A stretch of 50,628 nt of DNA from Patescibacteria group bacterium. Its GTDB lineage: Bacteria; Patescibacteriota; Minisyncoccia; Minisyncoccales; Staskawiczbacteraceae. Under the pieces are notes generated by a model. The model saw nothing but the letters and a program-made list of their open reading frames with translations, made no database searches and was not told where the DNA came from. Below, in pieces: positions 7,519 through 23,093 of the stretch. The position numbers were made by a program, and so were the translations under genes. The stretch is from assembly GCA_018895235.1 (NCBI GenBank), contig JAHIOM010000036.1, positions 1 through 50,628 of the forward strand, in the 5' to 3' direction. The stretch's first letter is position 1, and the number at the start of each line of letters is the position of its first letter.

Positions 7519-7521
7519 TTT

Positions 7522-10113
7522 ATGCCTCAGCAATTTCTCTACGAACAATTAGATGGTGCTTCAAAAATGGGGCTTCTTAAAAAGGAAGTTCCGGATTTTT
7601 TGGTTGAAAACTTGAATCCAAATTTTGAATTGAGAGGATATCAAAAAGAGGCATTCGCGAGATTTTTTCATTGCTATAATGGCGATTATGAGAATAAAGA
7701 ATATCCTCTACATTTTCTTTTTAATATGGCCACGGGTTCCGGAAAAACCTTAATAATGGCAGGGCTCATTTTATATTTATACGAGCAGGGCTATCGTAAT
7801 TTTTTATTTTTTGTTAATTCAACGAATATTATTGAAAAAACCAAAGACAATTTTTTGAATAATTTATCCAGTAAATATTTATTTAATGACAAGATATTTT
7901 TCGATAACAAACAGGTTCAAATTAAACAAGTTGACAATTTTGACGGAACGAGCAATCAAGATATCAATATTTGTTTTACTACTATCCAAAAGTTGCACGG
8001 TGATTTATACAACGAAAAAGAAAACTCTTTAACTTCGGAAGATTTTAAGAATAAAAAAATAGTTTTGCTTGCCGATGAGGCGCATCATAGCCAAGTACAA
8101 ACCAGAAATGGCCAAAGAGAAATATTTGAGAAGCCGAATTGGGAGAATACAGTTGAAAAGATTTTCAAACAAAATACCAGTAATCTACTTTTAGAATTTA
8201 CGGCCACACTTGATTTGTCTCAGAGAGAAATAAATGAAAAATATAGAAATAAGATTATTTATAAATACGATCTAAAAGAGTTTAGAAATGATGGCTATTC
8301 AAAAGACGTGGAATTGTTGCATACAGATACGGATAGGCGAGATAGGATAATTCAAGCCATAATCTTAAGTCAATACAGGCAGGAAGTTGCTGGTAAACAT
8401 GGAATTAATCTTAAACCGGTAATTCTATTTAAAGCCCAGAAAACAATAGCCCAATCGGAAGATAACAAGAAATTGTTTCATAAAATAATAGAAAGTCTGT
8501 CAGTAAAGGATATTGAGGGTACCAGAAAAAGAAGCAATATAGAAATTTTGCAAAAAGCGTTCAGTTTTTTTAAGGAGAATAAAATTAGTAATACTATTTT
8601 AGTTAAAAAGCTAAAAGATGGTTTTGCTGAAAACAAAACGTTAAGCGTTAACGAAGAACAAGAAAAGGAAAAATATCAATTACTTCTAAACTCTCTTGAA
8701 GATAAAAACAATCAAATTAGAGCAATTTTTGCGGTACAGAAGCTGAATGAAGGTTGGGATGTATTGAATTTATTTGATATTGTCCGGCTTTATGAAACAA
8801 GGGATGGTAAAAATAACAGGCCAGGGAAGACTACGATTTCCGAAGCTCAATTAATTGGCCGTGGCGCTCGTTATTTTCCATTTAAATTAAGTGAAACAGA
8901 TGATAAATTTAAACGCAAATATGATAAAGAATTACAAAATGAATTAAGAGTTCTGGAAGAGCTGCATTATCATAGCCATAATGAGTCAAGATATATATCA
9001 GAAATTAGGATAGCTTTAGTCGAAGAAGGGATGATTGATGAAAACGAATTGGAGGTCGAATTAAAAATGAAAGAAGAGTTCAAAAAAACACCTTTTTATA
9101 AATCTGGACTAATTTATGCAAACGAAAAAATAAAGAGAAGTTTTGAAAAAGTTAAATCCCTTGATGATTTGGGCGTGAAGAAAAAAAATATAGTGACTCG
9201 AATTATGTCTGGCGGCGGTATGACAACTGCATTATTTGAAAAAGGTTTAGTTATGAAAGAAGGAGTACAAAGAGTTAGGGAGGATTTTAAGATTAAAAAT
9301 TTTGAACCACATATTGTTAAAAATGCTTTAACTAGGAATGAATTTTTTAATTTTTCTTCGTTAAAGAATTACTTTCCGAAATTAACCTCGATTAGAGAGT
9401 TTATTGAAAGTGATAAATATCTAGCTAATTTTGGCATTACTTTCGAGATGGAAAGGTATGCGACTGCGATAGATAATTTAGAGAAATTCAAAGCCATTAT
9501 TAAGTTATTAGAGCAAATAGAAGGAGAAATAAAAGAAAATTTAACAGAATATATTGGGAGCGAAGAATTTACTCCGACTTTTATAAAAAATCACAGAATT
9601 TCTAAAGATAAGAAAATTAAAGTTAAAAAAGACAGCGAGAGATTAGATGGACAGGAAGAATTTTTAGAGGATAAAGATTGGTATGTCTTTAATGCGAACT
9701 ATGGCACTAGTCAGGAAAAAGATTTTGTTAAAATGTTTGCTAGCCAGATAAATGATTTGCGAAGGAAATTTAAGCAGATCTATTTATTCCGCAACGAAAA
9801 ACAATTGAAAATTTATAACTTTAGCAATGGCCAAGCATTTGAACCTGATTATCTTTTATTCCTAGTTAATAAAGTAGGAAATAGCATTACTTATCAGTTG
9901 TTTTTAGAGCCCAAGGGTAAGTATCTAGTCGAAGGCGAAAAATGGAAGAATCAATTTTTAGAGAACATTAGAGATAAATTCAAAGATAAAATTCTGGAAT
10001 TTTCAAAATCAAAAAAATATAAAATCACTGGGGTACCATTTTATCAGAGTGAAAATGAAAATGAGTTTAAGAGAAAATTATTGGAAACCATAGGAATAAA
10101 CTCGAAAAATTAA
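7522..10113 (+). CDS. res: Type III restriction endonuclease/helicase (Res)
   Basis: MATGSGKT, DEAHH, QLIGRGARY, C-terminal FEPDY...FLEPKG nuclease motif. Confidence 0.9.
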   Translation: MPQQFLYEQLDGASKMGLLKKEVPDFLVENLNPNFELRGYQKEAFARFFHCYNGDYENKEYPLHFLFNMATGSGKTLIMAGLILYLYEQGYRNFLFFVNSTNIIEKTKDNFLNNLSSKYLFNDKIFFDNKQVQIKQVDNFDGTSNQDINICFTTIQKLHGDLYNEKENSLTSEDFKNKKIVLLADEAHHSQVQTRNGQREIFEKPNWENTVEKIFKQNTSNLLLEFTATLDLSQREINEKYRNKIIYKYDLKEFRNDGYSKDVELLHTDTDRRDRIIQAIILSQYRQEVAGKHGINLKPVILFKAQKTIAQSEDNKKLFHKIIESLSVKDIEGTRKRSNIEILQKAFSFFKENKISNTILVKKLKDGFAENKTLSVNEEQEKEKYQLLLNSLEDKNNQIRAIFAVQKLNEGWDVLNLFDIVRLYETRDGKNNRPGKTTISEAQLIGRGARYFPFKLSETDDKFKRKYDKELQNELRVLEELHYHSHNESRYISEIRIALVEEGMIDENELEVELKMKEEFKKTPFYKSGLIYANEKIKRSFEKVKSLDDLGVKKKNIVTRIMSGGGMTTALFEKGLVMKEGVQRVREDFKIKNFEPHIVKNALTRNEFFNFSSLKNYFPKLTSIREFIESDKYLANFGITFEMERYATAIDNLEKFKAIIKLLEQIEGEIKENLTEYIGSEEFTPTFIKNHRISKDKKIKVKKDSERLDGQEEFLEDKDWYVFNANYGTSQEKDFVKMFASQINDLRRKFKQIYLFRNEKQLKIYNFSNGQAFEPDYLLFLVNKVGNSITYQLFLEPKGKYLVEGEKWKNQFLENIRDKFKDKILEFSKSKKYKITGVPFYQSENENEFKRKLLETIGINSKN

Positions 10114-10116
10114 TTG

Positions 10117-10155
10117 ACCCCAGTTAAATATTGGCTTTGCCAATTTAACGGGGCA
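10117..10155. repeat. Bulged-hairpin mini-element, family A, copy 1
   Basis: ACCCC-A-GTTAAATATTGGC-TTT-GCCAATTTAAC-GGGGCA; near-identical copy at 10962-11000. Confidence 0.8.
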
Positions 10156-10217
10156 AGGAATAAAAATTATGGGAAATTTGTTAAATTTTAACTCAAACAA
10201 ATTACAAACAAAAGGCC

Positions 10218-10298
10218 TTGACAGGGGTCCTGAGTTTGCTATAATTATAATAGTTAATCCCACCGCCCTCTCGGTTTACCGGGACGGCGGTTTTTTTT
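10218..10298 (+). promoter_or_regulatory. Promoter plus terminator-ended leader (putative sRNA) preceding an NYN gene
   Basis: TTGACA(10218)-16 bp-TATAAT(10240) with TGC extension; hairpin ACCGCC..GGCGGT 10262-10291, then a T-run directly before the ATG. Confidence 0.65.
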
Positions 10299-10859
10299 AT
10301 GAAAAGAGCATTCGTCTTTATTGACGGCGGTAATTTTTATTTTAAATTAAAAGATTTAACATCTAAATTAGATGGAAAATATAGTTTGCTTGATTTTGAA
10401 TTTAGAAAATTTGCCGAATGGTTAGTTACGCCAAACGAATTATTAGAAATTAGGTATTATCTCGGAGCGATTAAGCGCGAACGCAACAATCCAAAGAGCG
10501 AACAGTTATATGCAAATCAGCAAAAACTTATTGGAAAACTCCAGCAGCAGAATATTATTATCACCTTGGGTCATGTTATCCGCCACCCAGACAAAACCCA
10601 CCACGAGAAAGGTGTCGATGTCCGTTTAGCGGTAGAAATGATTAAATTTGCCAGAGAGAATAAGTATGATATTGCTTATTTGGTGAGTTCTGATACGGAT
10701 TTAGTAGCAGCGGTTGAAGAAGTCCGGGCCTTTGGCAAAAAAGTTCAATATGTAGGAATTCCTAAGGGCCAATCGTATGGTCTTTCAACTGTTGCTGACG
10801 ATGTTAGATTATTACGGCCGGAAGAAATAGAACAATTTTTACCTCCGTCGCTTATATAA
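10299..10859 (+). CDS. NYN domain (LabA/DUF88, PIN-like) putative RNase
   Basis: FIDGGNF, EKGVDVRLAVEM, SSDTDL acidic motifs. Confidence 0.9.
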   Translation: MKRAFVFIDGGNFYFKLKDLTSKLDGKYSLLDFEFRKFAEWLVTPNELLEIRYYLGAIKRERNNPKSEQLYANQQKLIGKLQQQNIIITLGHVIRHPDKTHHEKGVDVRLAVEMIKFARENKYDIAYLVSSDTDLVAAVEEVRAFGKKVQYVGIPKGQSYGLSTVADDVRLLRPEEIEQFLPPSLI

Positions 10860-10904
10860 AAATTAAGAAAAATAGCGTTAGCTCTATTTTTAACAAAAAC
10901 TCGA

Positions 10905-11041
10905 ACCCTTCGATGGTTCGACAGGCTCACCACAGACAAACTCAGGGCAAGAAATTAATTGACCCCAGTTAAATATTGGCTTCGTCAATTTAACAGGGCA
11001 AGGGAACCCTAGTAGAAGAAACGAAGTTTCTCTACGGGGTA
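10905..11041. repeat. Stack of four mini-elements at one junction
   Basis: ACCCTTCGA..CAAACTCAGGGCA (10905-10949) containing TGGTTCGACAGGCTCACCACA (10914-10934); family A copies at 10962-11000 and 11006-11041. Confidence 0.8.
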
Positions 11042-11084
11042 AGTAAAAATTATGGAAGATAAAATTTTTGGAGATAAATAATCC

Positions 11085-12926
11085 ATGAAAGAAAAAATTA
11101 GGAAAATAAAAAACAGAAAAAATTGGCATTTCGACAAATACTTGGAGAAAATTAAAGTCTTAGCGGTTTCACGTCGAACCGTTATTTTAGTAGTAATTAT
11201 TTCTTTTCTAACTGTTGCAGGAATTAGTTATGGCGCAATTGGCTACCATAAAATATCAAAAGCGATAGAACAAGCCAGACAATTTACAAAAGAAGAAAAA
11301 TTTGAGGAAGCGATTAATGAACTAGGTCTCGCTCAAATTAGCGGGGTTGTTAAAATAGGAATAAAAAAGCAGGAAATTAATAATGAAATAGAAAAAAATA
11401 AAAAGCTTATTGAAGAAAAATCAAAATATAATAATGCATTGAGCGAACTTAATGAAGAAAGTTATCAAAAGGCAATTAGTTCTTTTTCAAATATTACTGA
11501 AGACTCTCTTTATTATCAAAAAGCCCAAACCAAAATAGAAGAAGCAAAGAGGAAAATGGTAGAAGGGAAACTTTCTGAAGAACAAGTAGCTCGAAAATCA
11601 GCAGAAGTAAAAGCGAAACAAGAAGAATTTGAAAAAAATTTAAAAGAGAAGCAACTAGCGGATAAGGCTGCGGAAGAAAAAATGATGAATACTGACAATG
11701 ATGGCGATAGCCTAACTTATAGAAGAGAATTAGAGTTAGGAACTTCTGATTGGAATATTGATTCTGATGGTGATGGAATAATTGATAGTAAAGACACTCA
11801 TCCAGCTGGTGGAGGACGAAATATACCCCAAACATTTGCTTGGAATTATGGCGGATATAATTGGACTTTTACAACATCAATTGCCGAAGATTGGTACGAC
11901 TATTATAAGGCTAAACCTCGGCTTCCCGCGACTAGCGTAGAGTATATAACTTATAATGACCCATTTATACAAAGAATAAGTAATAAAATACTTGAAGAGT
12001 CTAAAAAAGATAATCTTTGCGAAGCTTGTTTGGCCGCCGCATTTATACAAAGTCTTCCATATATCGAGGATGTATATACCGGTTACGACGAATACCCGAA
12101 ATATCCAATTGAAACCTTTTTCGAAAAGAACGGAGATTGCGAGGACACTAGTTATCTTACAGCTTCTATTATTTTAGCAATGAATATAGATGCTGTTCTT
12201 ATTTTACTCCCAGGACATATGGCGGTTGGTGTTTGGGCAAATTGTGATAATCCTGGCACATATTATAAATTAGGGGATAAATGTTACTACTATATTGAAA
12301 CAACAGGAGATGGTTTTAAATTGGGTGATATACCAAATGAATATCGTTATACTGCCGCCACATTAGTAAAAATTCCTTCTGGAGAAAATATTGCCGTAGC
12401 TCCACAATATAAAAAGCCGTGTGACCCATCGCCGTACTTCATCGGATATTATTATAGCGGAGCTGATTTCTATTCAGATGCCCAATGCAATTATCAAACC
12501 AATTGCTTGCCATGGTCTAGTTATGTTTCAGCTTCTTCTCTTTCCGGATATTATTATAATTCTCAGTTAGAACAAACATATCATGACTCATCTTGTACTC
12601 AGATAGCAGTTAAGGGATGCTATAAATCAAAAACCTATTCAGGATATTTTTACAAATCAGGACTTGCCTGGTATTACGATTCTCAATGTACTCAAACATA
12701 TCAATCTATGACCTGTAGCTATCCCTATTCCTATGTTTATTCTTGTACAACTGAAAGCGGCTATAACTCTAAAAAAAGCAACTGTGATTATTATGCTTCG
12801 TCAGAGTATCTTAAGTCTTTAGCAGAAAGTTGTTATGCCGGACTCGATAAGTGTAGAAGTGATATAAATGAGTACCAAAGTAAGCTGAATGAATATAATG
12901 CGTGTACGGCCAGGAAAGAATATTAA
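11085..12926 (+). CDS. Membrane-anchored multidomain protein: helical/coiled-coil, Ca-binding TSP3-like repeat, transglutaminase-like domain, Cys/Tyr-rich repeats
   Basis: TM segment; DNDGDSL/DSDGDGIID; GDCEDTSYL..GHMAVG; three YY..D..C repeats near the C-terminus. Confidence 0.7.
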   Translation: MKEKIRKIKNRKNWHFDKYLEKIKVLAVSRRTVILVVIISFLTVAGISYGAIGYHKISKAIEQARQFTKEEKFEEAINELGLAQISGVVKIGIKKQEINNEIEKNKKLIEEKSKYNNALSELNEESYQKAISSFSNITEDSLYYQKAQTKIEEAKRKMVEGKLSEEQVARKSAEVKAKQEEFEKNLKEKQLADKAAEEKMMNTDNDGDSLTYRRELELGTSDWNIDSDGDGIIDSKDTHPAGGGRNIPQTFAWNYGGYNWTFTTSIAEDWYDYYKAKPRLPATSVEYITYNDPFIQRISNKILEESKKDNLCEACLAAAFIQSLPYIEDVYTGYDEYPKYPIETFFEKNGDCEDTSYLTASIILAMNIDAVLILLPGHMAVGVWANCDNPGTYYKLGDKCYYYIETTGDGFKLGDIPNEYRYTAATLVKIPSGENIAVAPQYKKPCDPSPYFIGYYYSGADFYSDAQCNYQTNCLPWSSYVSASSLSGYYYNSQLEQTYHDSSCTQIAVKGCYKSKTYSGYFYKSGLAWYYDSQCTQTYQSMTCSYPYSYVYSCTTESGYNSKKSNCDYYASSEYLKSLAESCYAGLDKCRSDINEYQSKLNEYNACTARKEY

Positions 12927-13135: not shown

Positions 13136-13645
13136 ATGAAATTAAAAATCATTCCGTATAATAAAAACGTTTCGGAAAGATTTAAAAAAGAGAAGAAAAA
13201 GATTTTAAGAGTTGTTAGAAGGTGCAAGGTTTGGCATATTGGAAGTACTGCGACACCAGGTTTAGGAGGCAAAGGAATTGTTGATATAATGCTTGGAATA
13301 AAAAATTGGAAATATCCGGAAAGTACAATTAAAAAATTAAAAAAGATAGGCTTTAAACACATTCATTCTAAAGAAAAGGGAAGAATTTTTTTGAGCAAAA
13401 ACAAGACGCTTTCTTTGGGTAATATCCACATTCATATTGTCAAAATAGGAAGCAAAACCCAAAAAGAGATTTTGTATTTTAGAGATTATTTAAGGAAAAA
13501 TAAAAAAGAGGCTGAAAGATATTTTAATTTTAAAAAGAAATGGCTAAAAGAATCTTGTAGAAATAGAAAAAAATACAAAAAACTAAAATCTAAATATATT
13601 AACAAGGTTTTATATGGCAAGAAATTAATTAAAAATAATAAATAA
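13136..13645 (+). CDS. GrpB family protein
   Basis: HIGSTATPG..GKGIVDIM, HIHIV, FRDYLR. Confidence 0.85.
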   Translation: MKLKIIPYNKNVSERFKKEKKKILRVVRRCKVWHIGSTATPGLGGKGIVDIMLGIKNWKYPESTIKKLKKIGFKHIHSKEKGRIFLSKNKTLSLGNIHIHIVKIGSKTQKEILYFRDYLRKNKKEAERYFNFKKKWLKESCRNRKKYKKLKSKYINKVLYGKKLIKNNK

Positions 13646-13646
13646 T

Positions 13647-13958
13647 ATGGAATTTAAAGAAATTCAAAAAAAGGTAATTGATAACGCCATCAATTATGGG
13701 AAAAAATACAACGTAAAAATTGATGAAGATTTTGCATTATTTAAATTATATGAAGAGGTGGGGGAATTGGCTCAAGATGTTTTAATTCATAGAAAAAAAT
13801 GCAGACCCGAAAAATATCTTCCGGAAGAAAAATCAAAAGAAGAATTAGCAAAAGAACTTGCAGACGTTTTAGGAATGATAATAGTAAATGCTCATCTTTT
13901 AGACATTGATTTAGAGGATGCAATAAATAAAAAGTGGATTAACAAAGAAAAAAGTTAA
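13647..13958 (+). CDS. MazG-like NTP pyrophosphohydrolase, copy 1
   Basis: KLYEEVGELAQ...ELADVL acidic motif. Confidence 0.8.
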   Translation: MEFKEIQKKVIDNAINYGKKYNVKIDEDFALFKLYEEVGELAQDVLIHRKKCRPEKYLPEEKSKEELAKELADVLGMIIVNAHLLDIDLEDAINKKWINKEKS

Positions 13959-14175
13959 AATAATCAAAATTTAGGCCGAAGTTGAATTATGAAGAAGTAT
14001 TCGTCAAATCGTGCGCAAAAAGGAAAAACTGCTTACCGGACGCCAAGCCGGTTTATTTATAAAATGACGCTTAAATCTATAAAAAATAAATGCAGAATTC
14101 CTCGATAAACTAAACAAAGTTAAACTTAATCAAATTAAGTACAAGTCGCCGAATTATAGAAAAGAGAATTAATTG

Positions 14176-14240
14176 ACCCATCACTGCCAACCCACCACTA
14201 CCAAAAATTGGTGTAGGGGTAAAAATTTGGTGTGAGGGCG
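14176..14240. repeat. Family A element with a sibling nested in its loop
   Basis: ACCCATCACTGCCA[ACCCACCACTACCAAAAATTGGTGTAGGGGTA 14190-14221]AAAATTTGGTGTGAGGGCG. Confidence 0.75.
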
Positions 14241-14317
14241 AGGTCGAAGTTTAAGAAATTTATGATAAAATTAAAGTAATGACTGCCCTTTTTCTAAAAA
14301 ATCAAATAACAACCAAC

Positions 14318-14866
14318 ATGATTTATGTTTTTATAGACGCATCAAATGTTTGGAACGCGGTCAAGTCGGTAAAAAAGTTTATTGAATACAAAACTCTTAA
14401 AGATTATTTTAGGAAAAATTTTAACGCAGACAAGGTTGAAATTTTTTATTACGACGCTTATCCAAAAGCCGGAACAAGAGATTATGACTTGGGTGGAAAG
14501 CATAAGTTCTTTACTTATCTTAAGAAAGGGCTTGGGTTTACCGTAAGAAAAAAAGAGTTAAAAAGAATCTCTGTTATTGGCGAGAGCGGAGAATCTATTA
14601 TAGAAAAAGGAAATATGGATGTGGAAATAACGATTGACGCAATGCATAACATTCATAAATATAACATAGCCATCTTTTTTAGCGGTGACGCTGATTTTCT
14701 TGCACTGGTGAATTATCTGAAAAATAACGGTAAAAAGGTCTATATTTTTTCGTCAAAAGACAATATTTCTCACGAACTAAAAACTGGCGGGGATGGTTAT
14801 TTTGATTTGAAAGATATACATGAATTTTGGGGTAAAGATTTAAAACACCGCGAAAAATTAGTATAA
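14318..14866 (+). CDS. NYN domain putative RNase, copy 2 (divergent; ORF track start 14279)
   Basis: FIDASN, KGNMDVEITID, SGDADF. Confidence 0.9.
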   Translation: MIYVFIDASNVWNAVKSVKKFIEYKTLKDYFRKNFNADKVEIFYYDAYPKAGTRDYDLGGKHKFFTYLKKGLGFTVRKKELKRISVIGESGESIIEKGNMDVEITIDAMHNIHKYNIAIFFSGDADFLALVNYLKNNGKKVYIFSSKDNISHELKTGGDGYFDLKDIHEFWGKDLKHREKLV

Positions 14867-14867
14867 A

Positions 14868-14992: not shown

Positions 14993-15032
14993 ACCCCAGT
15001 AGTAGTCCCGTTAAGCGGGACACTACGTGGCA
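14993..15032. repeat. Family A element
   Basis: ACCCC-A-GTAGTAGTCCCG-TTAAG-CGGGACACTAC-GTGGCA, followed by AGTAAAATTATG. Confidence 0.75.
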
Positions 15033-15041
15033 AGTAAAATT

Positions 15042-15371
15042 ATGGAAAAAGAAGGACAAAAAAACCAAATTATTCCAAAAATTGAAGAGTTTTTTAAAGT
15101 ACCAGAGCGAGTGGCTGATAAAATTAAAATTATTGCGGAAAAGGTTAGGGGTGGTTATGTTGTGATTGAAACTAGACCTCGTTGGGATGGAACTCCTGGG
15201 CCTTGGACAAGAAGTCCAGTTGCTAAATTTGTTTTTCATAATCCCTCTTTGTCATGGAGACTTTATTGGATGCGTGCTTCTGGGAAATGGTGGTTTTATG
15301 GAACTTATAAAACATTAGATAAAGTATTGAAAATAATAAAAGGAGATAAAGACGGCTGTTTTTGGGGTTAA
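15042..15371 (+). CDS. DUF3024-like protein
   Basis: PVAKFVF...WRLYWMRASGKW; start placed at the AAAATTATG context. Confidence 0.7.
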   Translation: MEKEGQKNQIIPKIEEFFKVPERVADKIKIIAEKVRGGYVVIETRPRWDGTPGPWTRSPVAKFVFHNPSLSWRLYWMRASGKWWFYGTYKTLDKVLKIIKGDKDGCFWG

Positions 15372-15384: not shown

Positions 15385-16290
15385 ATGAAAAAGTTTTTTG
15401 AGAAAAATAAAATATTTTTGGCGATTGTGGTTGGAGCTTTAATTATTGGCGGAGCGATTTATTTATCCAGTATAAATAGGGGAGAGGTTGCTGAGAAATC
15501 ACCGGCGACAGGAGAAAATTGCCAGAATATCCCCGAACTTCCGGATAATACCTTAAAATTGGCGACGAAAATTATTGACGGCGATACTTTTTTGATTGAG
15601 GGCGGCGCTTCAGTAAGAATTTTGGGAATTGACGCTGACGAAAGGGGATATCCTTGTTATGATGCAGCGAAAAATAAATTGGAAGAACTTATTTTGAACA
15701 AAGAAGTAAAATTAGAAAAAGGTCCGGAAAATATCGACCAGTACTGCCGCTATCTAAGATATGTTATTTCTGATGGTCAGAATATCTCTTTGGAGCTGGT
15801 AAAAGAGGGGATGGCAGTGGCGAGATTTTCTCCAGAAGGCACAAAATACCGCGAAGAAATCACTCAAGCCGAAAAAGAAGCCAAAGAGAATAAAGTTGGC
15901 TGCAAGTGGTCTGCCTCCATTGTTCCAGACAGCGGAGTTATGGAGAATAAAGAATTTCAATGGGAAAAGTTAACCCCGGAATTAACGGGACTAAAGGTTA
16001 TTGGCGCCTGTAGCGCCGGTAATTATTACGGGAGGGAGGTAATTGTTGAGGGAAAAATTGCTGATGCTTATTGTTCAAAAACCAATACTGTATTTTTAAA
16101 TTTTGAAAAACCATATCCGAATCATTGCTTTGTCGGAGTGATTTTCAGTTCAGACCAGTATAAATTTGTCCAAAATCCTGAAAATTATTACTCAAATAAA
16201 AATGTTAGAATAAGAGGTGAAATTAAAGAATACCAAGGAAAGCCGGAAATTATTCTAAATGATCCGTCTCAAATCGAAATCGGCAAGTAA
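15385..16290 (+). CDS. Membrane-anchored thermonuclease (SNase) with C-terminal OB-like domain
   Basis: IIDGDTF, VRILGIDADE, DQYCRYLRYV; C-terminal IRGEIKEYQGKPEII. Confidence 0.85.
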   Translation: MKKFFEKNKIFLAIVVGALIIGGAIYLSSINRGEVAEKSPATGENCQNIPELPDNTLKLATKIIDGDTFLIEGGASVRILGIDADERGYPCYDAAKNKLEELILNKEVKLEKGPENIDQYCRYLRYVISDGQNISLELVKEGMAVARFSPEGTKYREEITQAEKEAKENKVGCKWSASIVPDSGVMENKEFQWEKLTPELTGLKVIGACSAGNYYGREVIVEGKIADAYCSKTNTVFLNFEKPYPNHCFVGVIFSSDQYKFVQNPENYYSNKNVRIRGEIKEYQGKPEIILNDPSQIEIGK

Positions 16291-16301
16291 AAATTAAAAA
16301 T

Positions 16302-16961
16302 ATGAAAAACCCAGAACAAGTTCCGAATCAAGAATTAGAGATTAATCCAAAGAAAGAAATAAGCCCAGAGTTAGTTAGGGCTATAGAACAAGAAGCTCTT
16401 CATGTAGATGATAAAGTTAATATACTTTTAACTAAAGCTGGCTTAAAACCAGCCTCGGAGATTACTCTAACTATAAGGACTTGGAACGAGGAAGAAAATA
16501 ACAAGCATATGGCAGAAGACGATATTCAAAGAGATGTTTGGATTATTAAAGAATTAGGGATACCGGTTCAATTCGGAAGCAGAGAAGTTGTTGAGATAGT
16601 GGAAGATAACAAAAAATATCATCGCGAAGAAATACGAATTTTAATAGGGAAAACCCAAAAAGATTTAGATTTTCTTATAGAAGCGCAGAAATCTAAAGAT
16701 AATGAACTATTGGGTAGGGCGTATGGATTTCCGTCCACCGCCGTAGATGCCTGGGTGGGGAAGGGGAAAAAACTTGACGTTAGAAGGTTGCCTAAAAAGA
16801 TTAGAGAGAGCGAAGCGATGCTTTTTTCTTCTCCAACGCTTTCGGCAGATAATTGGCGAAAGGAAATTGAACAGGGGCAACGAGACGCAGATTATATCAA
16901 GGGTATAAGCCCTTTTATTTATAAAGAATTGATAGAGATGATGAAAAGAAGCAGGAAATAA
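16302..16961 (+). CDS. Hypothetical protein
   Basis: 219-aa ORF containing GRAYGFPSTAV. Confidence 0.6.
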   Translation: MKNPEQVPNQELEINPKKEISPELVRAIEQEALHVDDKVNILLTKAGLKPASEITLTIRTWNEEENNKHMAEDDIQRDVWIIKELGIPVQFGSREVVEIVEDNKKYHREEIRILIGKTQKDLDFLIEAQKSKDNELLGRAYGFPSTAVDAWVGKGKKLDVRRLPKKIRESEAMLFSSPTLSADNWRKEIEQGQRDADYIKGISPFIYKELIEMMKRSRK

Positions 16962-17024
16962 CTTTTTGTACCATTGAAAAGTTGAAAAGGGGTCAGGAGC
17001 CTTTTCTTAATAAAAATTAATTAA

Positions 17025-17062
17025 GCCCCGCAAAATAGCAGTGATACTGCCATCGCGGGGCA
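17025..17062. repeat. Family A-like hairpin element
   Basis: GCCCCGC..GCAGT-GAT-ACTGC..GCGGGGCA, between AAAATTAATTAA and AGTAAAAATTATG. Confidence 0.65.
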
Positions 17063-17072
17063 AGTAAAAATT

Positions 17073-17744
17073 ATGGATGAAAAATTTCAAAAAATTAAAG
17101 AGGTAGTTGAGAAAGAACTTTCTTGTTCTGCTCATAGTATGGACCACGTTATGAGGGTCTATAACCTGTCTTTACATTTTGCTAAAAATGAAGACGTGGA
17201 TTCGGATGTATTAAAGGCGTCTGCCTTATTACATGATATCGCCAGAGTAAAAGAAGATAATGATTCTACGGGAAACACTGACCATGCAATTTTAAGCTCA
17301 AAAATGGCAGAGCCGATTTTAAGAGAGCTTGGATTTTCTGAAGAAAAAATTAAGCATATCCAAGATTGTATTATTTCACATAGATACAGAACGGGAAACA
17401 AGCCAAAAACAAAGGAAGCTCAGATTCTGTTTGACGCAGATAAATTAGATGTCGTAGGAGCCATTGGCATTGCCCGAAGTTTTGTTTGGGTTGGTAGAAA
17501 TAATGCTAAGATTTATGCCGATGTAAATATTGATGAATATATTAAAGATAATTTAGGAGGGAAAATCAATGGAAGAATACAGGACAAAACCAAACATAGT
17601 CCGCAAATAGAATTTGAAACAAAGTTGAAGTTTTTAACGGATAAATTATATACTGACAAAGCTAAAACAATAGGCAAAGAAAGATCAGGGTTCTATAAAA
17701 GTTTTTTAGATAGATTAGAAAAAGAAATCAATGGCGAATTGTAG
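17073..17744 (+). CDS. HD-domain phosphohydrolase
   Basis: HSMDHVMRV, LLHDIAR, SHRY, DADKLD. Confidence 0.9.
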   Translation: MDEKFQKIKEVVEKELSCSAHSMDHVMRVYNLSLHFAKNEDVDSDVLKASALLHDIARVKEDNDSTGNTDHAILSSKMAEPILRELGFSEEKIKHIQDCIISHRYRTGNKPKTKEAQILFDADKLDVVGAIGIARSFVWVGRNNAKIYADVNIDEYIKDNLGGKINGRIQDKTKHSPQIEFETKLKFLTDKLYTDKAKTIGKERSGFYKSFLDRLEKEINGEL

Positions 17745-17753
17745 TTTAAAAAT

Positions 17754-18161
17754 ATGATTATAACTATTTGTGGATCAATAAAATTCTTTGAACAAATGCT
17801 TGAGGTGAAGAGCAATCTTGAGAAAATTGGGCATACCGTCCTCATGCCTATAAAAGCAGACGGTGTTGACTACTGGTCAGAAGATAGTGCCGGCAGAGTT
17901 GAGGCAAAGAAAAAATTTGAATTTATTTCGGAACATATGAACAAGATAAAAAAGTCAGACGCAGTTCTAGTGGTAAATGTTACAAAAGGAGATATTAAAA
18001 ACTATATAGGAGCGAACACGTTTCTTGAGATTGGTTTTGCGCATTACATAAATAAAAAAATTTATCTGTTTAACGAAATTCCTAATCAAAAATATATTGA
18101 GGATGAAATTCTGACTATAGAGCCGATTGTACTAAATGGCGATTTAAGTAAAATAACCTGA
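17754..18161 (+). CDS. Hypothetical protein, possibly nucleoside 2-deoxyribosyltransferase-like fold
   Basis: ITICGS...SDAVLVVN...YIGANTFLEIGFA; family assignment from recall only. Confidence 0.45.
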   Translation: MIITICGSIKFFEQMLEVKSNLEKIGHTVLMPIKADGVDYWSEDSAGRVEAKKKFEFISEHMNKIKKSDAVLVVNVTKGDIKNYIGANTFLEIGFAHYINKKIYLFNEIPNQKYIEDEILTIEPIVLNGDLSKIT

Positions 18162-18204
18162 TAAAAAGAAAATATTGTTAGCTCTGGTTTTAATAAAAAC
18201 TCGG

Positions 18205-18226
18205 ACCCTTCGACAAGCTCAGGGCA
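18205..18226. repeat. REP-like element ACCCTTCGACAAGCTCAGGGCA (family B)
   Basis: Matches the outer element at 10905-10949 and the variant at 19252-19272. Confidence 0.75.
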
Positions 18227-18251
18227 AGAAATTAATTGAGGAATAAAATTT

Positions 18252-18998
18252 ATGATGATAGGCTATAATTTAGACAAAATAAAATTCGCTACGGACACAG
18301 CGACTTTTGAAAAGGCGGTTGAAATTTATGAATCGGACGGAGTAAAAAACTTTGAATTTGTCGGTTTGGGATTTTCCGCAAAGGTAAGGGGAAGCAAGGG
18401 GGATTTTTATAATGTTTTTGTATCTGCGAAACATTACGACAGGGGAAACTGCGATTGCTATCTCGGCCAAAATGAGACGCTTTGCAAACATTTAGTGGCC
18501 CTTGCGATTTACGTTGTTATGCGAGGCGATAAATTAAACGCGGAAGATAAAAAAACAATCAGCTCGCCCGAATGTAGCGAACGGTTGGGCGAATTAAGCA
18601 AAGAAGAATTGACTCGGATAAAAAAAGATATTGCGTTGGCAATGAAATACATAAAATCGTACACGGGGCCATCAAAGATTTGGTTTGCTTATCAGGATTC
18701 GCTTTGTGAAGGTTGCGCCCGTTTATCTAAAATAGTTTCAGAGTTGCCCGTGAGCGAGCAGATGGCAAAATTATTGGTTGATATGCTTTTGCGTCTTGAT
18801 AAAAAAATATCTTATGGTGTTGATGATTCAGACGGAACAGTGGGCGGATTTATTGAGGAAGTGGTTTTAATGCTTCAGGAATTTGTAAAAATTGATTCAA
18901 AATGTATCAGGGCGTTTAAAAAACTTTGCGGAAAAGAGACTATGTTTGGCTGGGAAGAACCGCTGGCAAAAATATTTGACGAGCAGGATATTGACTGA
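18252..18998 (+). CDS. SWIM zinc-finger protein
   Basis: CDCYLGQNETLCKHLVAL (CxC..CxH). Confidence 0.8.
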   Translation: MMIGYNLDKIKFATDTATFEKAVEIYESDGVKNFEFVGLGFSAKVRGSKGDFYNVFVSAKHYDRGNCDCYLGQNETLCKHLVALAIYVVMRGDKLNAEDKKTISSPECSERLGELSKEELTRIKKDIALAMKYIKSYTGPSKIWFAYQDSLCEGCARLSKIVSELPVSEQMAKLLVDMLLRLDKKISYGVDDSDGTVGGFIEEVVLMLQEFVKIDSKCIRAFKKLCGKETMFGWEEPLAKIFDEQDID

Positions 18999-19060
18999 CC
19001 GGGCAGGGCTAAACAGAGTTATGGAAAAATGGTGTCAACTCTGGTTTTTTACCCCGGTAG

Positions 19061-19165: not shown

Positions 19166-19251
19166 TTCCTGCCTCGCCTCAAAACAGACGGGTGAAAAAG
19201 TTTCTCCTACGTTGAAGATTCGGATGGACTACGGAAGGGCAGGGAAATTAA

Positions 19252-19310
19252 TCCCTCGATAAACTCGGGACAAGTTGACCCATCACTACTAAAATTTGGT
19301 ATTGAGGGCA
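19252..19310. repeat. Family B variant plus family A element
   Basis: TCCCTCGATAAACTCGGGACA (19252-19272); ACCCATCACTACTAAAATTTGGTATTGAGGGCA (19278-19310). Confidence 0.7.
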
Positions 19311-19342
19311 AGGAAATAAAATAAATTTTAATTTAGAATAAT

Positions 19343-20059
19343 ATGGAATTTGAAAAAGAAATTATTAGAGAAGAACAAGAAAGTTTAGATTTAGAAAAAG
19401 AGGTTGAAAAATTTGAAAAAAATTCAGAAAAATTAAAATTTTTAATTTCAACCATTGATAAATTAACATTTCCAGAAAACCCTCTGCCCGTGGAAGAAAA
19501 TGAAAATATTGGAGGGGTTCTTCCTGATGGCAAGATTTTTCCATTTAGAGCAAGATATAGTTTTTCTGAAAAAGATGGTCGAGTAATAAAAGAAAATTAT
19601 GAAGTTAATAATGTAGAACTAGATAAACGGCATTTAGAGTTTGGCATTTTTTTAAGTTTGGCAGTTCATGAGGTTAGGCATAGAGTGCAATGGACTAAAG
19701 AAAGAGAAAAAACTGAGTTTGAAATCTTTACCGAAAATGACCTTTCAGACTTTTTGGGGGAAACGTCGGAGATTCGGTCTTTAAAGAATTATTCAAAAAT
19801 ACAAAGATATTTAGAAATTAGAAAAGATCTTGCTGGAGATAGTGAAAGCTTTGACAAAGAAATAGATGCCATGATCATCGGTATTTTAGCTGAAATTTTA
19901 TTTAAAAAAAGAAAGGATATTTCAACTATTTCGGGGTTTGTTAAAAGTGATGATAAAGAAAAAATTTTAAAAGAAATTGGTGAGAATAAGAAAGAACTAT
20001 TAGAGGTAATTTCATCAAGGATAGAAGGTAATTTTTTGTATAAAAATGGTGAAAAATAG
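19343..20059 (+). CDS. Hypothetical protein with HExxH motif
   Basis: AVHEVRHRVQW and a downstream EIDA. Confidence 0.55.
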   Translation: MEFEKEIIREEQESLDLEKEVEKFEKNSEKLKFLISTIDKLTFPENPLPVEENENIGGVLPDGKIFPFRARYSFSEKDGRVIKENYEVNNVELDKRHLEFGIFLSLAVHEVRHRVQWTKEREKTEFEIFTENDLSDFLGETSEIRSLKNYSKIQRYLEIRKDLAGDSESFDKEIDAMIIGILAEILFKKRKDISTISGFVKSDDKEKILKEIGENKKELLEVISSRIEGNFLYKNGEK

Positions 20060-20094
20060 GAAAAAAATAATGTCAACTGTCGAAAAATTAATTG

Positions 20095-20128
20095 ACCCGT
20101 CACTACCAATTTTATTGGTGTGAGGGCA
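20095..20128. repeat. Family A element
   Basis: ACCC-G-TCACTACCAA-TTTTA-TTGGTGTGA-GGGCA after AAAAATTAATTG. Confidence 0.75.
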
Positions 20129-20150
20129 AGGGAATAAAAATTATAAAAAT

Positions 20151-20462
20151 ATGGAATTTAAAGAAATTCAAAAAAAGGTAATTAATAACGCCATCAATTA
20201 TGGGAAAAAATACAACGTAAAAATTGATGAAGATTTTGCATTATTTAAATTATATGAAGAGGTAGGCGAATTAGCGCAGTCTGTCTTAATACATAGGAAA
20301 AAGTGCAGACCCGAAAAATATCTTCCAGAAGAAAAATCAAAAGAAGAATTAGCAAAAGAGCTTGCAGATGTTTTAGGAATGATAATAGTAAATGCTTATC
20401 TTTTAGATATTGATTTAGAAGACGCAATAAATAGAAAGTGGATTAATAAAGAAAAGGGTTAG
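20151..20462 (+). CDS. MazG-like NTP pyrophosphohydrolase, copy 2
   Basis: Same length as 13647-13958; about 6 of 103 residues differ by visual comparison. Confidence 0.8.
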   Translation: MEFKEIQKKVINNAINYGKKYNVKIDEDFALFKLYEEVGELAQSVLIHRKKCRPEKYLPEEKSKEELAKELADVLGMIIVNAYLLDIDLEDAINRKWINKEKG

Positions 20463-20477
20463 ACCAAACAGGTTTTA

Positions 20478-20511
20478 ACCCCAGTAGAAGAACAAAGCTC
20501 TCTACGGGGCA
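20478..20511. repeat. Family A element
   Basis: ACCCC-A-GTAGAAGAACAAAGCTCTCTAC-GGGGCA; sibling of 11006-11041. Confidence 0.75.
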
Positions 20512-20521
20512 AATAAAAATT

Positions 20522-20959
20522 ATGGCGAAACAAAGATTTAAAATAATTCCTGCAGTATATTTAATCTTAATTAAGGATGATAAAATTCTTCTTTCTCGAA
20601 GATATAATACTGGTTTTTGCGATGGGGAGTATAGTTTCCCTGCAGGGCATTTAGAGGGAAATGAAACATTCGAAGAAGCTCTTGTTAGGGAAACAGAGGA
20701 AGAAATAGGAATAAAATTAAACCTGAAAGATTTAAAGTTGGTTCATGTTATAGATAGAAAACAACCAAAAGAGGAGAGGGTTGATTTCTTTTTTACAAGC
20801 AGAAAATGGAAGGGCGAACCAAAAATTATGGAGCCTCACAAATGCGATGATTTAGATTGGTTTTCACTCAGTAATCTTCCCGATAATGTAATACCTTATA
20901 TTAGGCAGGTAATTAAATGTGTTTTAACTAATAATTTTTATAGTGAATTTGGTTGGTAA
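20522..20959 (+). CDS. NUDIX hydrolase
   Basis: GHLEGNETFEEALVRETEEEIG Nudix box. Confidence 0.9.
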   Translation: MAKQRFKIIPAVYLILIKDDKILLSRRYNTGFCDGEYSFPAGHLEGNETFEEALVRETEEEIGIKLNLKDLKLVHVIDRKQPKEERVDFFFTSRKWKGEPKIMEPHKCDDLDWFSLSNLPDNVIPYIRQVIKCVLTNNFYSEFGW

Positions 20960-21654
20960 AATTAAAAAACAAAAATAAAATTATGCCAAAGTCTTTTAAT
21001 TATGTTTTTGTTGACGAATCAGGCGATCCCGGTAAACCATATAAAACAGACAAGGGCGGAAATAAAATTCCTACTGGCGCAAGTTTATTTTATATTTTAT
21101 CTGCTGTTTGTGTTGATTCAAAAAAACTATTTGCTATGGAAAATAGAATTATGGAAATAAAGGGTCATTATAGTTATCGTAGCGAATTAAAAGCTCAAAA
21201 TATACCATTAAAAATGTATAAAGATTTATTGGACATAATTAATGAATTGAAAATTAAAATTTATTATAGGCTTATAGATAAAACAAAATATAGAGGAACT
21301 TTTGCGGTTGATGGAAAAAAGAAGTTGCACAATGTTTTTGATGAATATAATTTAGTAAAGTTGGTATCTTTCGCAATTAAAAAATGCAGATTTGATAAGG
21401 CTGAGGTGATTATAGATAGAGCCGATCGCAGATTGTTAGACGGTAGGTTTGATAATTTCAATAATTACTTAATAAATAAAGTTAATACCAAAACAATAAA
21501 AATAGTAGAATTTATTACTCATGTGAACTCGGAATATGTAAATGTGATGCAGATGTCTGATTTAGTAAGTGGTGCTATAAAGGATGACTTTACGGGTAAA
21601 AATAAAGAACTTTTAAAAATTATTAATAAGCGATTTTTGGAAAAAATTTGGTAA
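20953..21654 (+). CDS. DUF3800 domain protein (start may be ATG 20983)
   Basis: YVFVDESGDPG at the N-terminus, QMSDLVSGAI at the C-terminus. Confidence 0.8.
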   Translation: MVKLKNKNKIMPKSFNYVFVDESGDPGKPYKTDKGGNKIPTGASLFYILSAVCVDSKKLFAMENRIMEIKGHYSYRSELKAQNIPLKMYKDLLDIINELKIKIYYRLIDKTKYRGTFAVDGKKKLHNVFDEYNLVKLVSFAIKKCRFDKAEVIIDRADRRLLDGRFDNFNNYLINKVNTKTIKIVEFITHVNSEYVNVMQMSDLVSGAIKDDFTGKNKELLKIINKRFLEKIW

Positions 21655-21662
21655 ATATAAAT

Positions 21663-21733
21663 AAAAAAAAGCGGGCACCCAGACCTGGGACACGCTTCAT
21701 GATTAATAATAGCAGACCTACGCCTATTGTCAA
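21663..21733 (-). ncRNA. Putative small RNA transcription unit convergent with the DUF3800 gene
   Basis: Minus-strand TTGACA(21733-21728)-16 bp-TATTAT(21711-21706) with TGC extension; GC-rich hairpin 21670-21696 followed by a U-tract. Confidence 0.55.
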
Positions 21734-21765
21734 TAGTTTCCAAGGAGTAAGAAATTAATTGAGGA

Positions 21766-21805
21766 ACCCCGGTAGTAGCCCGCCTCAGGCGGATACTACG
21801 GGGCA
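21766..21805. repeat. Family A element in the xseA leader
   Basis: ACCCC-G-GTAGTAGCCCGCC-TCA-GGCGGATACTAC-GGGGCA. Confidence 0.75.
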
Positions 21806-21815
21806 AGTAAAAATT

Positions 21816-23093
21816 ATGGCAAATAATACAGATAAAAAAGAGGATAAAATATTTTCTATTTCAGAATACATTGGATTTCTTAACTCAGAATTAAAAAAAT
21901 GTGCGGCAAAAATTATTGGAGAGGTTGGCAAAGTAGATATTTATCCGAGCGGCCATGTTTATTTTTCGTTAAGAGACGAAAAAGACAAAAGTGTGATTAG
22001 TTGTATAATTTGGAAATCACAATATAAATTATTTGGTATTGAAATAAAAGAGGGCGTTAAGATTATTGCAACTGGTCGTCCGGATATATATAAACAAACG
22101 GGACGACTTTCTTTTATAGCCGAAACAATTGAACTTGCAGGAGAGGGTATATTAAAGAAAGAATATGAAAAATTGAAGAAAAAATTAGGCGACGAAGGAA
22201 TTTTTGAAGAGAGTAAAAAAAGATCTATCCCAGCATATCCTCAAAAGATAGGAATAATTACTTCAAAACAGGGAGCAGTTCTATCAGATTTTCTAAGTAA
22301 TATTGGCAATTATGGTTTTAAAATTAAAATGGTTGATTCCAGAGTCGAGGGACAATCATCTATTACAGATTTACTATCAGCCATTAAGATCATTAAGAAA
22401 AAAGATATCGAAGTTTTGATTATTATGAGGGGTGGCGGTTCTTTCGAATCATTACAGCCGTTTAATAACGAATTATTGGTTAGAGAAGTTGCAAATTTTC
22501 CTGTTCCGGTAATTGCTGCTATCGGTCACGACAAAGATGTGCCGTTAGTTTCCTTAGCCGCAGATCTTGAAGTTTCTACTCCAAGTATTGCCGCCATTAC
22601 GCTCAGTAAATCATGGAAGGAAGCCATTATATTTTTAGAAAGATATGAAAGAAATATTATTGGCGGATATGAAAATATTTTGCAGGACGCCGTTTCTTTA
22701 ATTAATAAATCAATTGATATGGTCCGCGATTCTAAGAACCTGATTATTGACAAGTACAAAAGGGTTGAAAATAAAATGAGAGTTTCACTCCAAAATTTTA
22801 GCAATATCCTTAATAATATTAGTTTAAGGATAGATAATTTAATAGATAGATCTTTTTTTGGCTTAAAATATTTAATTTTAACGGCGCAACAAAATTTAAA
22901 ACACGCTGAGAGAATTATTTCAATTAACAGTCCAGAACGTCAACTTAATTTGGGCTATAGTATTGCCTTTTCTGATGGTAAAATAATCAGAAATACGGAA
23001 GATACTGAAATAGGAAAAAATATAGACCTTCGAGTTGTAGACGGAACAATTATTTCACAAGTAAAAAATATTAATAAAATTAACAAAAAATAA
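21816..23093 (+). CDS. xseA: Exodeoxyribonuclease VII large subunit
   Basis: SGHVYFSLRD, RGGGSFESL, IGHDKD; start placed at AAAATTATG. Confidence 0.95.
   Translation: MANNTDKKEDKIFSISEYIGFLNSELKKCAAKIIGEVGKVDIYPSGHVYFSLRDEKDKSVISCIIWKSQYKLFGIEIKEGVKIIATGRPDIYKQTGRLSFIAETIELAGEGILKKEYEKLKKKLGDEGIFEESKKRSIPAYPQKIGIITSKQGAVLSDFLSNIGNYGFKIKMVDSRVEGQSSITDLLSAIKIIKKKDIEVLIIMRGGGSFESLQPFNNELLVREVANFPVPVIAAIGHDKDVPLVSLAADLEVSTPSIAAITLSKSWKEAIIFLERYERNIIGGYENILQDAVSLINKSIDMVRDSKNLIIDKYKRVENKMRVSLQNFSNILNNISLRIDNLIDRSFFGLKYLILTAQQNLKHAERIISINSPERQLNLGYSIAFSDGKIIRNTEDTEIGKNIDLRVVDGTIISQVKNINKINKK

Follow-up and report, generated by a model that had tools for sequence, protein, structure and literature searches.

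Ultra-small bacteria of the candidate phyla radiation (CPR) have tiny genomes and undergo much horizontal gene transfer, and to our knowledge it is largely unknown how they acquire foreign genes and bring them to expression. This question is raised in a concrete form by a locus on contig JAHIOM010000036.1 of a Patescibacteria group bacterium (assembly GCA_018895235.1), of which a stretch of 50,628 nucleotides was analysed, called the window here. Between a type III restriction–modification (R-M) locus and xseA, at 10.1–21.8 kb of the window, 15 accessory open reading frames (ORFs) follow each other in at least 11 units, and copies of one composite junction, the linker, lie between otherwise unrelated genes. 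All of this cargo is encoded on the + strand, as had been stated in an initial annotation made from the sequence alone. Since genes for AbiEii and RadC as well as the R-M genes are located upstream of the array, the setting is a defence island; several cargo proteins show weak matches to candidate defence families. What we describe is an accessory-gene array in a defence island with a portable, modular linker that is common across an order of Patescibacteria. With moderate confidence we interpret it as a recombination-prone plug-in linker array that follows the logic of integrons and not their mechanism.

The linker consists of two layers, namely a linear backbone of three blocks and hairpin units inserted at fixed points of this backbone. 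Reading of every intergenic stretch yielded the blocks B1 AAAAAGTCGAA, B2 AAATTAATTGA(G) and B3 AAATAAAATT-ATG. In its bare form the backbone is (A)AAAAGTCGAA (B1), AAATTAATTGA(G) (B2) and (G)AAATAAAATT-ATG (B3), and it terminates in the start codon of the next gene. Hairpins enter it at three points (carets in GTCGAA^AAATTAAT^TGA^GAAAT), and if a hairpin unit is taken out the backbone is exact: at 18229 AAATTAATTGA is directly followed by GGAATAAAATTT-ATG without a hairpin, and at 21752 the same flanks surround the hairpin hpB4. Block B2 is exact at 10107, 10952, 18229, 20085 and 21752, has one mismatch at 14166 and 17014 and is split by an inserted unit at 19244; the same split is found in metagenome copies. 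The recurrent motif is present at all eight sites from which the initial annotation had deduced it, and what had been overlooked there are the hairpins dividing the supposed conserved core. Further copies comprise a hairpin plus B3 (14994-15044 and 20479-20524) or B3 alone (20973-20985), and degenerate junctions occur at 13616-13649 and 16283-16304. The similarity of about 40 bp noticed upstream of two junctions could be reproduced with 87% identity over 45 nt (10869-10913 and 18169-18213).

Within its own genome (837 kb in 40 contigs) the linker is strictly confined to the array. A covariance model of hairpin plus right arm (R1) detected six copies at 57–65 bits, all of them within 10-22 kb of this contig, and the next best match anywhere in the genome scored 19.7 bits. 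Likewise AATTAATTGAC and GGCAAGTAAAAATTATG are restricted to the 12-kb array stretch. A 13-mer with two mismatches barely exceeds shuffled sequences and is a misleading test, whereas the exact halves and the covariance model demonstrate the confinement, which rules out a chance repeat or generic signal. The similar density all over the genome that would have spoken for such a signal was not encountered. None of the covariance models of Rfam 15 gave a relevant match at E ≤ 1 over 9500-22500.

The hairpin units are 35–50 nt long and follow the pattern CCC(C)-variable stem/loop-(G)GGG-CAAG. Four stem types can be distinguished, i.e., hpA (10118, 10963), hpB (11007, 14994, 20479, 21767), hpC (14177, 19279, 20096) and hpD (17026), whose stem sequences differ yet always pair. 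In an alignment of 43 copies from many genomes, which was fitted to the covariance model and hence is biased toward pairing, the basal stem is paired to 97.7% (39–52% with the partner slid) and compensatory changes occur in six of its nine pairs. As single strands the stems reach z-scores of about -3 (hpA1 as DNA: -12.9 kcal/mol, z -3.1). One hairpin is nested in another, the inner unit (14191-14219) lying in the loop of the outer hpC (14177-14242). In relatives of the same family singleton hairpins are found between nusG and rplK and before the genes of RNase J, PolX, UvrA, GyrA and an AddA-like helicase (annotated flanks); in one genus the hairpin at the nusG–rplK junction occurs in one of 26 genomes, the others being bare or having different palindromes. 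The hairpins behave as separate mobile mini-elements. The nusG–rplK junction of genus g14 (L210-L235) is itself a hot spot of small hairpins, with palindromic inserts varying by species and few bare examples. In another genome (L192; G083 C13) the start region of xseA is present in two similar copies (ATGGAAATAGAGAAGGA ... ATGGATATTGATAAAAA) that enclose a unit CCCTCCTTCG...GGGCAAG 5' of the gene, and this insertion looks as if it had duplicated or rebuilt the xseA start. The stretch TGGTTCGACAGGCTCACCA (10916-10934) of the long unit in the fullest junction suggested a tRNA at first glance, a reading that was rejected by eye for want of a proper T-arm. In Logan contigs from the same groundwater samples the stretches 10914-10949 and 18205-18225 (...CTTCGACAAGCTCAGGGCAAG) are fused to unrelated sequence, at a depth of up to about three times that of the contigs of the analysed genome; due to this foreign context the unit is considered as common to other members of the community.

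How far is the linker distributed? Matches of the exact right arm GGGGYAARTAAAAATTATG in 185,579 species genomes and in viral contigs were isolated and no more frequent than expected by chance. A genome-specific repeat, as one might have concluded, was overturned by the middle block, which exposed a wide family. Hairpin types of model R1 are present in 18 of the 79 family genomes and in 32 of the 401 genomes of the order, always as singletons. Because some of the copies in the order also bear ...GGGGCAAG-AAATTAATTGAG, a metagenome collection was scanned for GGGCAAGAAATTAATTGA, and this 18-mer was found in 86 loci, mostly from groundwater and sediment samples, 66 of them with further linker blocks. 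There the array strand carries 222 copies of B2 and the opposite strand 31, an ORF with ATG start follows within 120 nt after 153 of the 222 array-strand copies, and ORFs cover 297 kb of the array strand vs. 51 kb of the opposite strand. In many of these contigs small genes (NYN, NUDIX and others) make up long co-oriented arrays, each gene standing behind B1/B2/B3 or behind the alternative blocks B0/B4, and some arrays adjoin probable R-M genes. The hairpin-less B2-B3 28-mer (at most three mismatches) was detected in 25 of the 401 order genomes belonging to 22 genera, with no match in the controls. The same arrays are present in four genomes of other families (G130, G107, G124 and G180), those of G124 and G180 adjoining putative type III mod/res genes (N-terminal sequence; not confirmed by Pfam).

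The evidence for gene exchange at the linker comes from an all-against-all comparison of these loci, in which cassette-sized segments of 0.3–1.1 kb with 75–100% identity appear in varied orders and contexts. Two genes (A and B) that are adjacent in metagenome contig L096 are 3.5 kb apart and in reversed order in contig L138. The DUF3800 unit of the window (20971-21736, starting with B3 and reaching about 80 nt beyond the stop codon) is 91% identical in L096, where it has a full B1-hairpin-B2-hairpin-B3 linker before it and the linker of another gene behind it, while here its neighbours are the NUDIX gene and xseA. Between contigs that are 97–100% identical on one side the similarity stops after ...GTCGAA, ...GAACCC or AAATTAAT, before AAATTAATTGA, between AAATAAAAT and TATG, or at the start of B0; in a pair with 99.8% identity one block of units stands in place of another, with ...GTCGAA and AAATTAATTGA as the exact borders of the replacement. 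Depending on the pair compared, block B1 accompanies either the gene after it or the gene before it, and hairpins are present or absent at the same junction of near-identical sequences. Altogether 43 of 87 non-redundant internal homology ends fall within a linker block (±3 nt), compared with 6.6 ± 2.5 for random positions and 23.2 ± 4.1 for random intergenic positions (maximum 38 in 500 trials). In the window the gene reported to occur twice is a MazG-like ORF (13641-13940 and 20145-20444, 93% nucleotide identity). A cassette indel between the contigs L113 and L152 was rejected as a case of linker exchange, since it goes back to two genes that recombined with each other at their paralogous 3' ends. 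The initial annotation had proposed capture or reshuffling by recombination at one short site. Of this proposal the cassette-like array and the junction as mark of gene-content exchange are supported, the evidence being the same genes with different neighbours and the enrichment of homology ends in the blocks. The single short site with an integron-like recombinase is not supported: the junction is composite, the breakpoints are several, and no recombinase was found either beside the array itself or in related arrays totalling 417 kb.

Besides exchange the linker concerns translation. This organism does not use Shine-Dalgarno (SD) sequences (15% SD-like among 591 long ORFs), and its start context is A-rich at -3 to -6 with T at -1 in 53% of the same ORFs. 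Only the last 10–12 nt of the linker (B3; TAAAAATTATG, ATG-proximal) resemble this generic context. In the consensus backbone every reading frame is closed by a stop codon (positions -18, -14 and -7 relative to the ATG), and the genes of Res, GrpB and SNase end within junction sequence, the stop codon TAA of res (10111-10113) being located inside the first B2 block. The hairpins finish 12 nt upstream of the ATG. In front of the 613-aa gene the linker ATG opens a mini-ORF of nine codons (11052-11084, MEDKIFGDK) that closes 3 nt before the true start at 11085.

On the level of transcription a sole consensus + strand promoter of the array was found, at its head (TTGACA-16-TATAAT, 10218-10245, 12/12), and the former claim that several units carry promoters of their own appears weak. 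A sigma-70 promoter in the linker itself was rejected, as its TTGAGA and TAAAAT are 1-2 nt apart, their spacing shifts with the hairpins and the promoter scan was empty there. The hairpin units were also rejected as intrinsic terminators, as they are followed by a CAAG-A-rich sequence without T-run; separate T-run hairpins are situated upstream of some linkers. Three further layouts were noticed. At 10218-10298 the head promoter is followed by a GC hairpin and T8 abutting the NYN start codon in an attenuator-like or small-RNA-like manner. On the - strand between the second NYN gene and the DUF3024 gene (14975-14870) a near-consensus promoter (TTGACA-16-TATACT with TG) stands about 45 nt before a strong 12-bp terminator and could, to judge from these signals, yield a small RNA of about 70 nt opposite to the array strand. 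A similar pair on the - strand (21733-21675, TTGACA-16-TATTAT plus terminator) in the 3' untranslated region (UTR) of the DUF3800 gene is 91% conserved with L096 (about 5010-5088) and would give a predicted antisense RNA of about 35 nt.

The origin of the hairpins may be approached via elements elsewhere in the genome (G000). At C10:22938-23219 an element of 282 nt with the arms CCCGGTTAAATAA...TTATTTAACTGGG encloses an ORF of 85 aa of the GIY-YIG type (22983-23186; PF01541, 55.8 bits; no NCBIfam match for the protein) and abuts directly the ATG of the next gene. Its arms match those of hpA (CCCCAGTTAAAT...ATTTAACGGGG), and hpA alone shares with it the core GTTAAAT/ATTTAAC plus CCC/GGG (12 of 12 nt in a copy from genome G093). 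A second hairpin-bounded GIY-YIG gene was observed at C8 (about 31760-32010, arms ACCCCGCCCCCTA and TAGGGGGCGGGGT), the two ORFs having about 72-85 aa. Nuclease-bearing copies of hpB, hpC or hpD were searched for and not found. The top GIY-YIG genes of the family were rejected as hairpin-bounded elements, since they are flanked by GC-rich sequence and (by eye) a tRNA-like gene; in many family genomes (L240-L259) a conserved GIY-YIG gene of about 84 aa (MWFVYIIKC...) occupies a fixed site between GC-rich sequence (...GCAGGCCCCCGTGCAATTCGGGGCGGCCC) and a tRNA-like gene with, by eye, a CAT anticodon. The genome has also one Y1 transposase gene of the IS200/IS605 type (C11:68206-68568, - strand), and its flanking hairpins AAACCCCGCC...GGCGGGG belong to the CCCCGCC...GGCGGGG type and not to hpA, hpB or hpC. 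A further GIY-YIG gene is located 4 kb from it beside a tRNA-like sequence (by eye).

From these features the following mechanism may be proposed. The linker would act as a plug through which any ORF could be attached to a series of co-transcribed genes, termination and re-initiation on an A/U-rich leader providing for its translation. As it is the only sequence common to otherwise unrelated units and arrays, incoming or paralogous DNA would recombine there, depending on homology or microhomology and probably after DNA uptake; genes would in this way be captured, lost, duplicated and reshuffled as in an integron, with no dedicated integrase. The hairpins would be gene-less derivatives of hairpin-bounded, Ssn-like GIY-YIG nuclease elements and parasites of the plug. 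Nicking of single-stranded DNA (ssDNA) connected with the hairpin elements may stimulate the exchange, and a secondary effect on mRNA processing is conceivable.

Several points weigh against this interpretation. Alignments cross a shared block and stop at its edge, and therefore the enrichment of homology ends is partly built in. Metagenome assemblers can mis-join at repeats of 40–130 nt, so that some of the reshuffled contigs could be chimeras. No exchange event was seen in this population, all other assemblies of the locus being 100% identical to the window and the Logan contigs being uninformative. A conserved AT-rich sequence of 24–28 nt across families fits a protein-recognised site no less than a homology anchor. 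The link with GIY-YIG nucleases consists of a shared arm of about 12 nt in one hairpin type only, no GIY-YIG gene was found inside any array, and the best GIY-YIG matches in the family represent a different type that does not look mobile. A more far-reaching version, which we regard as doubtful, is an integrase-free gene-capture platform in Patescibacteria of this order. A universal plug of 35 nt (three-frame stop, A/U-rich leader, ATG) would make any ORF expressible in an SD-less polycistron and would also dock incoming DNA, and cassettes would be exchanged in response to nicks set by small GIY-YIG nucleases at the plug hairpins when DNA is taken up or replicated. Such a platform would be a nuclease-driven, homology-docked functional analogue of an integron.

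The plug-in linker has to be compared with true site-specific gene capture, in our opinion an unlikely competitor. Here the hairpin with its flanks (GTCGAA-CCC...GGG-CAAG-AAATTAATTGA) would be an attC analogue on which an enzyme supplied in trans acts as on folded ssDNA, and cassettes would leave the array as circles and be integrated at B1^B2. Such an enzyme could be the Xer-like tyrosine recombinase, a large serine recombinase (six are encoded), the Y1 HUH transposase or a nuclease of the GIY-YIG type. A co-oriented array of mostly promoterless single-gene cassettes under one head promoter is indeed the organisation of integrons and of CALINs (clusters of attC sites lacking an integrase). 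The hairpins have a conserved base, variable tips and a bulged A in TTG-A-CCCC...GGGG-CAA, the near-exact conservation of 18–28 nt across families suggests recognition by a protein, the exact block replacement in the 99.8%-identical contigs points the same way, and with Y1 and the hairpin-bounded GIY-YIG genes the genome encodes enzymes for ssDNA hairpins. However, homology ends at B0, on both sides of B1, at the start of B2 and inside it, at B3 and at B4, and these several positions together with the movement of B1 in either direction argue against a single crossover site. Moreover hairpins are optional; they are lacking at 18229 and in many metagenome copies. The one tyrosine recombinase of the genome (PF00589, contig C9) has XerD and XerC as best NCBIfam matches and reaches 108 bits as integron integrase vs. 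a cut-off of 265, which means that no IntI was found in the genome, and none was found in the 417 kb of related arrays. With the Xer, the Y1 and the six serine recombinases of the genome as queries phmmer detected no homologue in these 417 kb or in the four genome arrays. In the window no recombinase lies beside the array, the nearest one being a large serine recombinase at a distance of 27 kb. Finally, attC identity of the junctions was rejected: a search of both strands of the 10-22 kb stretch with the regular expression RYYYAAC-N35-130-GTTRRRY remained empty, in accordance with the initial annotation, and instead of these R''/R' boxes the hairpins have CCC/GGG bases with GTCGAA and CAAG as flanks.

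The large serine recombinases deserve a separate remark. They are encoded in the window (48656-50215, - strand) and on contigs C22, C27, C6, C20 (starts) and C28 of the genome; five of the six are paralogues (40-76% amino acid identity), each with a contig end at a distance of about 300 nt and GC-rich sequence in between, which suggests a repeated feature that breaks the assembly beside each of them.

Equally improbable, in our view, is that the linker is a pure expression signal, i.e., the conserved 5' leader of an ordinary polycistronic defence or housekeeping operon without any role in recombination. It would then be an A/U-rich ribosome loading site, the hairpins would be elements of RNA processing or stability, and the occurrence of similar linkers elsewhere would be due to selection for this function and to the transfer of whole islands. 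The agreement of B3 with the genome-wide start context, the invariable closure of the linker in an ATG, its strict co-orientation with the genes, the three-frame stops suited for translational coupling, the single head promoter and the structurally conserved hairpins ending 12 nt before the ATG, which precede core genes in relatives, all speak for this. On the other hand, B1, B2 and the hairpins are absent from all other operons of this genome and therefore are not needed for expression in general. Linkers mark exactly the accessory, reshuffled part, and units move singly and not as whole islands. Hairpin presence differs at the same junction of near-identical sequences and at orthologous sites, and no Rfam family matches.

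By far the least probable view takes the junction as scar of repeated insertion and excision by start-codon-seeking hairpin elements, with genes that are not mobile units and with B1, B2 and B3, alike in the pattern AAAwwrTyGA, as possible decayed copies of a start-proximal target; for all the likeness (by eye) of B2 AAATTAATTGAG and B3 AAATAAAATTATG, the G083 hairpin between two similar xseA start-region copies, the hairpins at stop/start junctions of core genes and the nested one, this is contradicted by B1 and B2, whose constancy across families before unrelated genes argues against target duplications of different genes, by the removal of hairpins that restores the backbone without duplication, and by genes that do change their neighbours.

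The plug-in linker array is the interpretation we favour; Table 1 lists the parts of the region. The array reaches up to xseA, and the last linker copy precedes this gene as initially claimed; the designation of xseA as core gene does not hold, since it is present in only 17 of the 79 family genomes, and xseA itself may be part of the exchangeable gene pool.

Table 1. Flanking genes, cargo genes and linker copies of the array (positions in the window)
Feature	Position	Strand	Remarks
Type III R-M locus, left flank	4749-10113	+	Pfam N6_N4_Mtase, TypeIII_RM_meth, ResIII; mod 4749-6737, then a 262-aa ORF, then res 7522-10113
Junction 1	10096-10171	+	B1-like 10096-10106, B2 10107-10117, hpA1 10118-10157, B3-like, ATG 10169; covariance score 65.2 bits
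NYN nuclease gene 1	10299-10859	+	
Junction 2 (fullest copy)	10865-11054	+	T-rich 10869-10894, B1 10895-10905, long unit 10906-10951, B2 10952-10962, hpA2 10963-11002, hpB1 11007-11043, B3 ATG 11052
613-aa protein, unknown family	11085-12926	+	
GrpB	13136-13645	+	3' end traverses degenerate hairpin-less junction GGCAAGAAATTAATTAAAAATAATAAATAAT-ATG (13616-13649)
MazG-like gene, copy 1	13647-13958	+	followed by alternative linker block B0
Linker block B0 AATCAAAATTTAGGCCGAAGTTGA	13962-13985	+	3' of MazG-like copy 1; recurs in other arrays
Junction with B2 GAATTAATTGA	14166-14242	+	followed by nested hairpin hpC 14177-14242
NYN nuclease gene 2	14279-14866	+	
Junction before DUF3024		+	hpB2 14994-15034, B3 ATG 15042
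DUF3024 gene	15042-15371	+	
SNase gene	15385-16290	+	stop within hairpin-less right arm GGCAAGTAAAAATTAAAAAT-ATG (16283-16304)
219-aa protein, unknown	16302-16961	+	
Junction AAATTAATTAA	17014	+	hpD 17026-17064, B3 ATG 17073
HD phosphohydrolase	17073-17744	+	
Nucleoside 2-deoxyribosyltransferase-like gene	17754-18161	+	
Junction at 18166	18166	+	T-rich block, B1-like 18195-18205, short unit 18206-18228, B2 18229-18239 joined straight to GGAATAAAATTT-ATG; second slot without hairpin
248-aa protein	18166-18998 (unit)	+	weak SWIM match, PDC-S62-like
Junction, 19024 region	about 19024-19050	+	terminator-like hairpin and T-run
Split B2		+	AAATTAAT / inserted unit 19253-19274 / TTGA, then hpC2 19279-19312
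238-aa protein, unknown	19343-20059	+	
Junction 20079	20079	+	GTCGAA, B2 20085-20095, hpC3 20096-20130, A/T-rich start region
MazG-like gene, copy 2	20151-20462	+	
Junction before NUDIX		+	hpB3 20479-20513, B3 ATG 20522
NUDIX gene	20479-20959 (unit)	+	ATG 20522
B3-only junction	20973-20985	+	before DUF3800
DUF3800 gene	20983-21654	+	true start ATG 20983; conserved 3' UTR, unit to 21736
Last junction	from 21745	+	GGAGTAAG, B2 21752-21762, GGAA, hpB4 21767-21807, B3 ATG 21816; 65.5 bits
xseA	21816-23093	+	right flank
xseB	23095-23346	+	right flank

In the literature searched no description of such arrays or of the linker was found. The organisation as gene-cassette array is already known; new are the junction, the missing integrase, the built-in translation logic and the hairpin mini-elements. 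The shared linker defines the variable part of defence islands, carries SD-less stop/restart signals and marks the sites of gene exchange. If confirmed, it would provide a concrete and searchable rule for the accessory gene pools of these organisms and a second, mechanistically distinct answer to the problem that integrons solve.

Among known systems several can be compared with parts of the array. Ssn proteins are GIY-YIG ssDNA nucleases that are flanked by dispersed hairpin repeats, cut at them and modulate transformation, these repeats being the NTS/SRM hairpins (Chenal et al. 2025, PMC11893778). The C10 element shows the same layout, with a small single-domain GIY-YIG gene between hairpin arms, and the matching hpA hairpins at 10118 and 10963 are gene-less. 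In both cases the repeats surround genes and an influence on the recombination of incoming DNA is proposed. In contrast with NTS/SRM, the motif is another one, the copies are few and concentrated in one array, and the hairpins are placed at fixed linker points just 5' of start codons.

With REP/BIME elements, REPINs (RAYT-dependent) and Correia/ERIC miniature inverted-repeat transposable elements (MITEs) the hairpins have in common that they are short intergenic palindromes with conserved bases and variable tips, sporadic at orthologous sites and in part nested, with possible effects on mRNA stability and a Y1 transposase encoded in the genome. They differ from these elements in that they strictly share the orientation of the genes and, within this genome, are limited to a single locus, and neither terminal inverted repeats of the MITE kind nor target duplications were seen here. 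A RAYT relationship would imply a Y1 gene flanked by the dispersed hairpins, whereas the hairpins beside the Y1 gene of this genome are of another type.

The pdif modules of Acinetobacter plasmids are accessory modules reshuffled at short conserved sites without a dedicated integrase, and a single Xer-like recombinase is available here too. However, a pdif site consists of 28 bp (XerC-spacer-XerD) and successive sites alternate in orientation, while the junctions of the array are all direct, and by eye no dif-like 11-6-11 arrangement was detected in them.

The closest parallel is that to integrons and CALINs. It comprises the one-directional string of small, unrelated and mostly promoterless genes behind one strong head promoter, the conserved hairpin-containing junctions, the reordered genes in related arrays, the duplicated cassette and the usual cassette cargo (NUDIX, MazG, GrpB, nucleases). 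The array differs from them in having neither IntI nor RYYYAAC...GTTRRRY boxes, and its conserved parts are linear with optional hairpins. Whereas attC gives a single G/TT crossover, homology in the array ends at several positions, and its junction closes in the start codon of the next gene.

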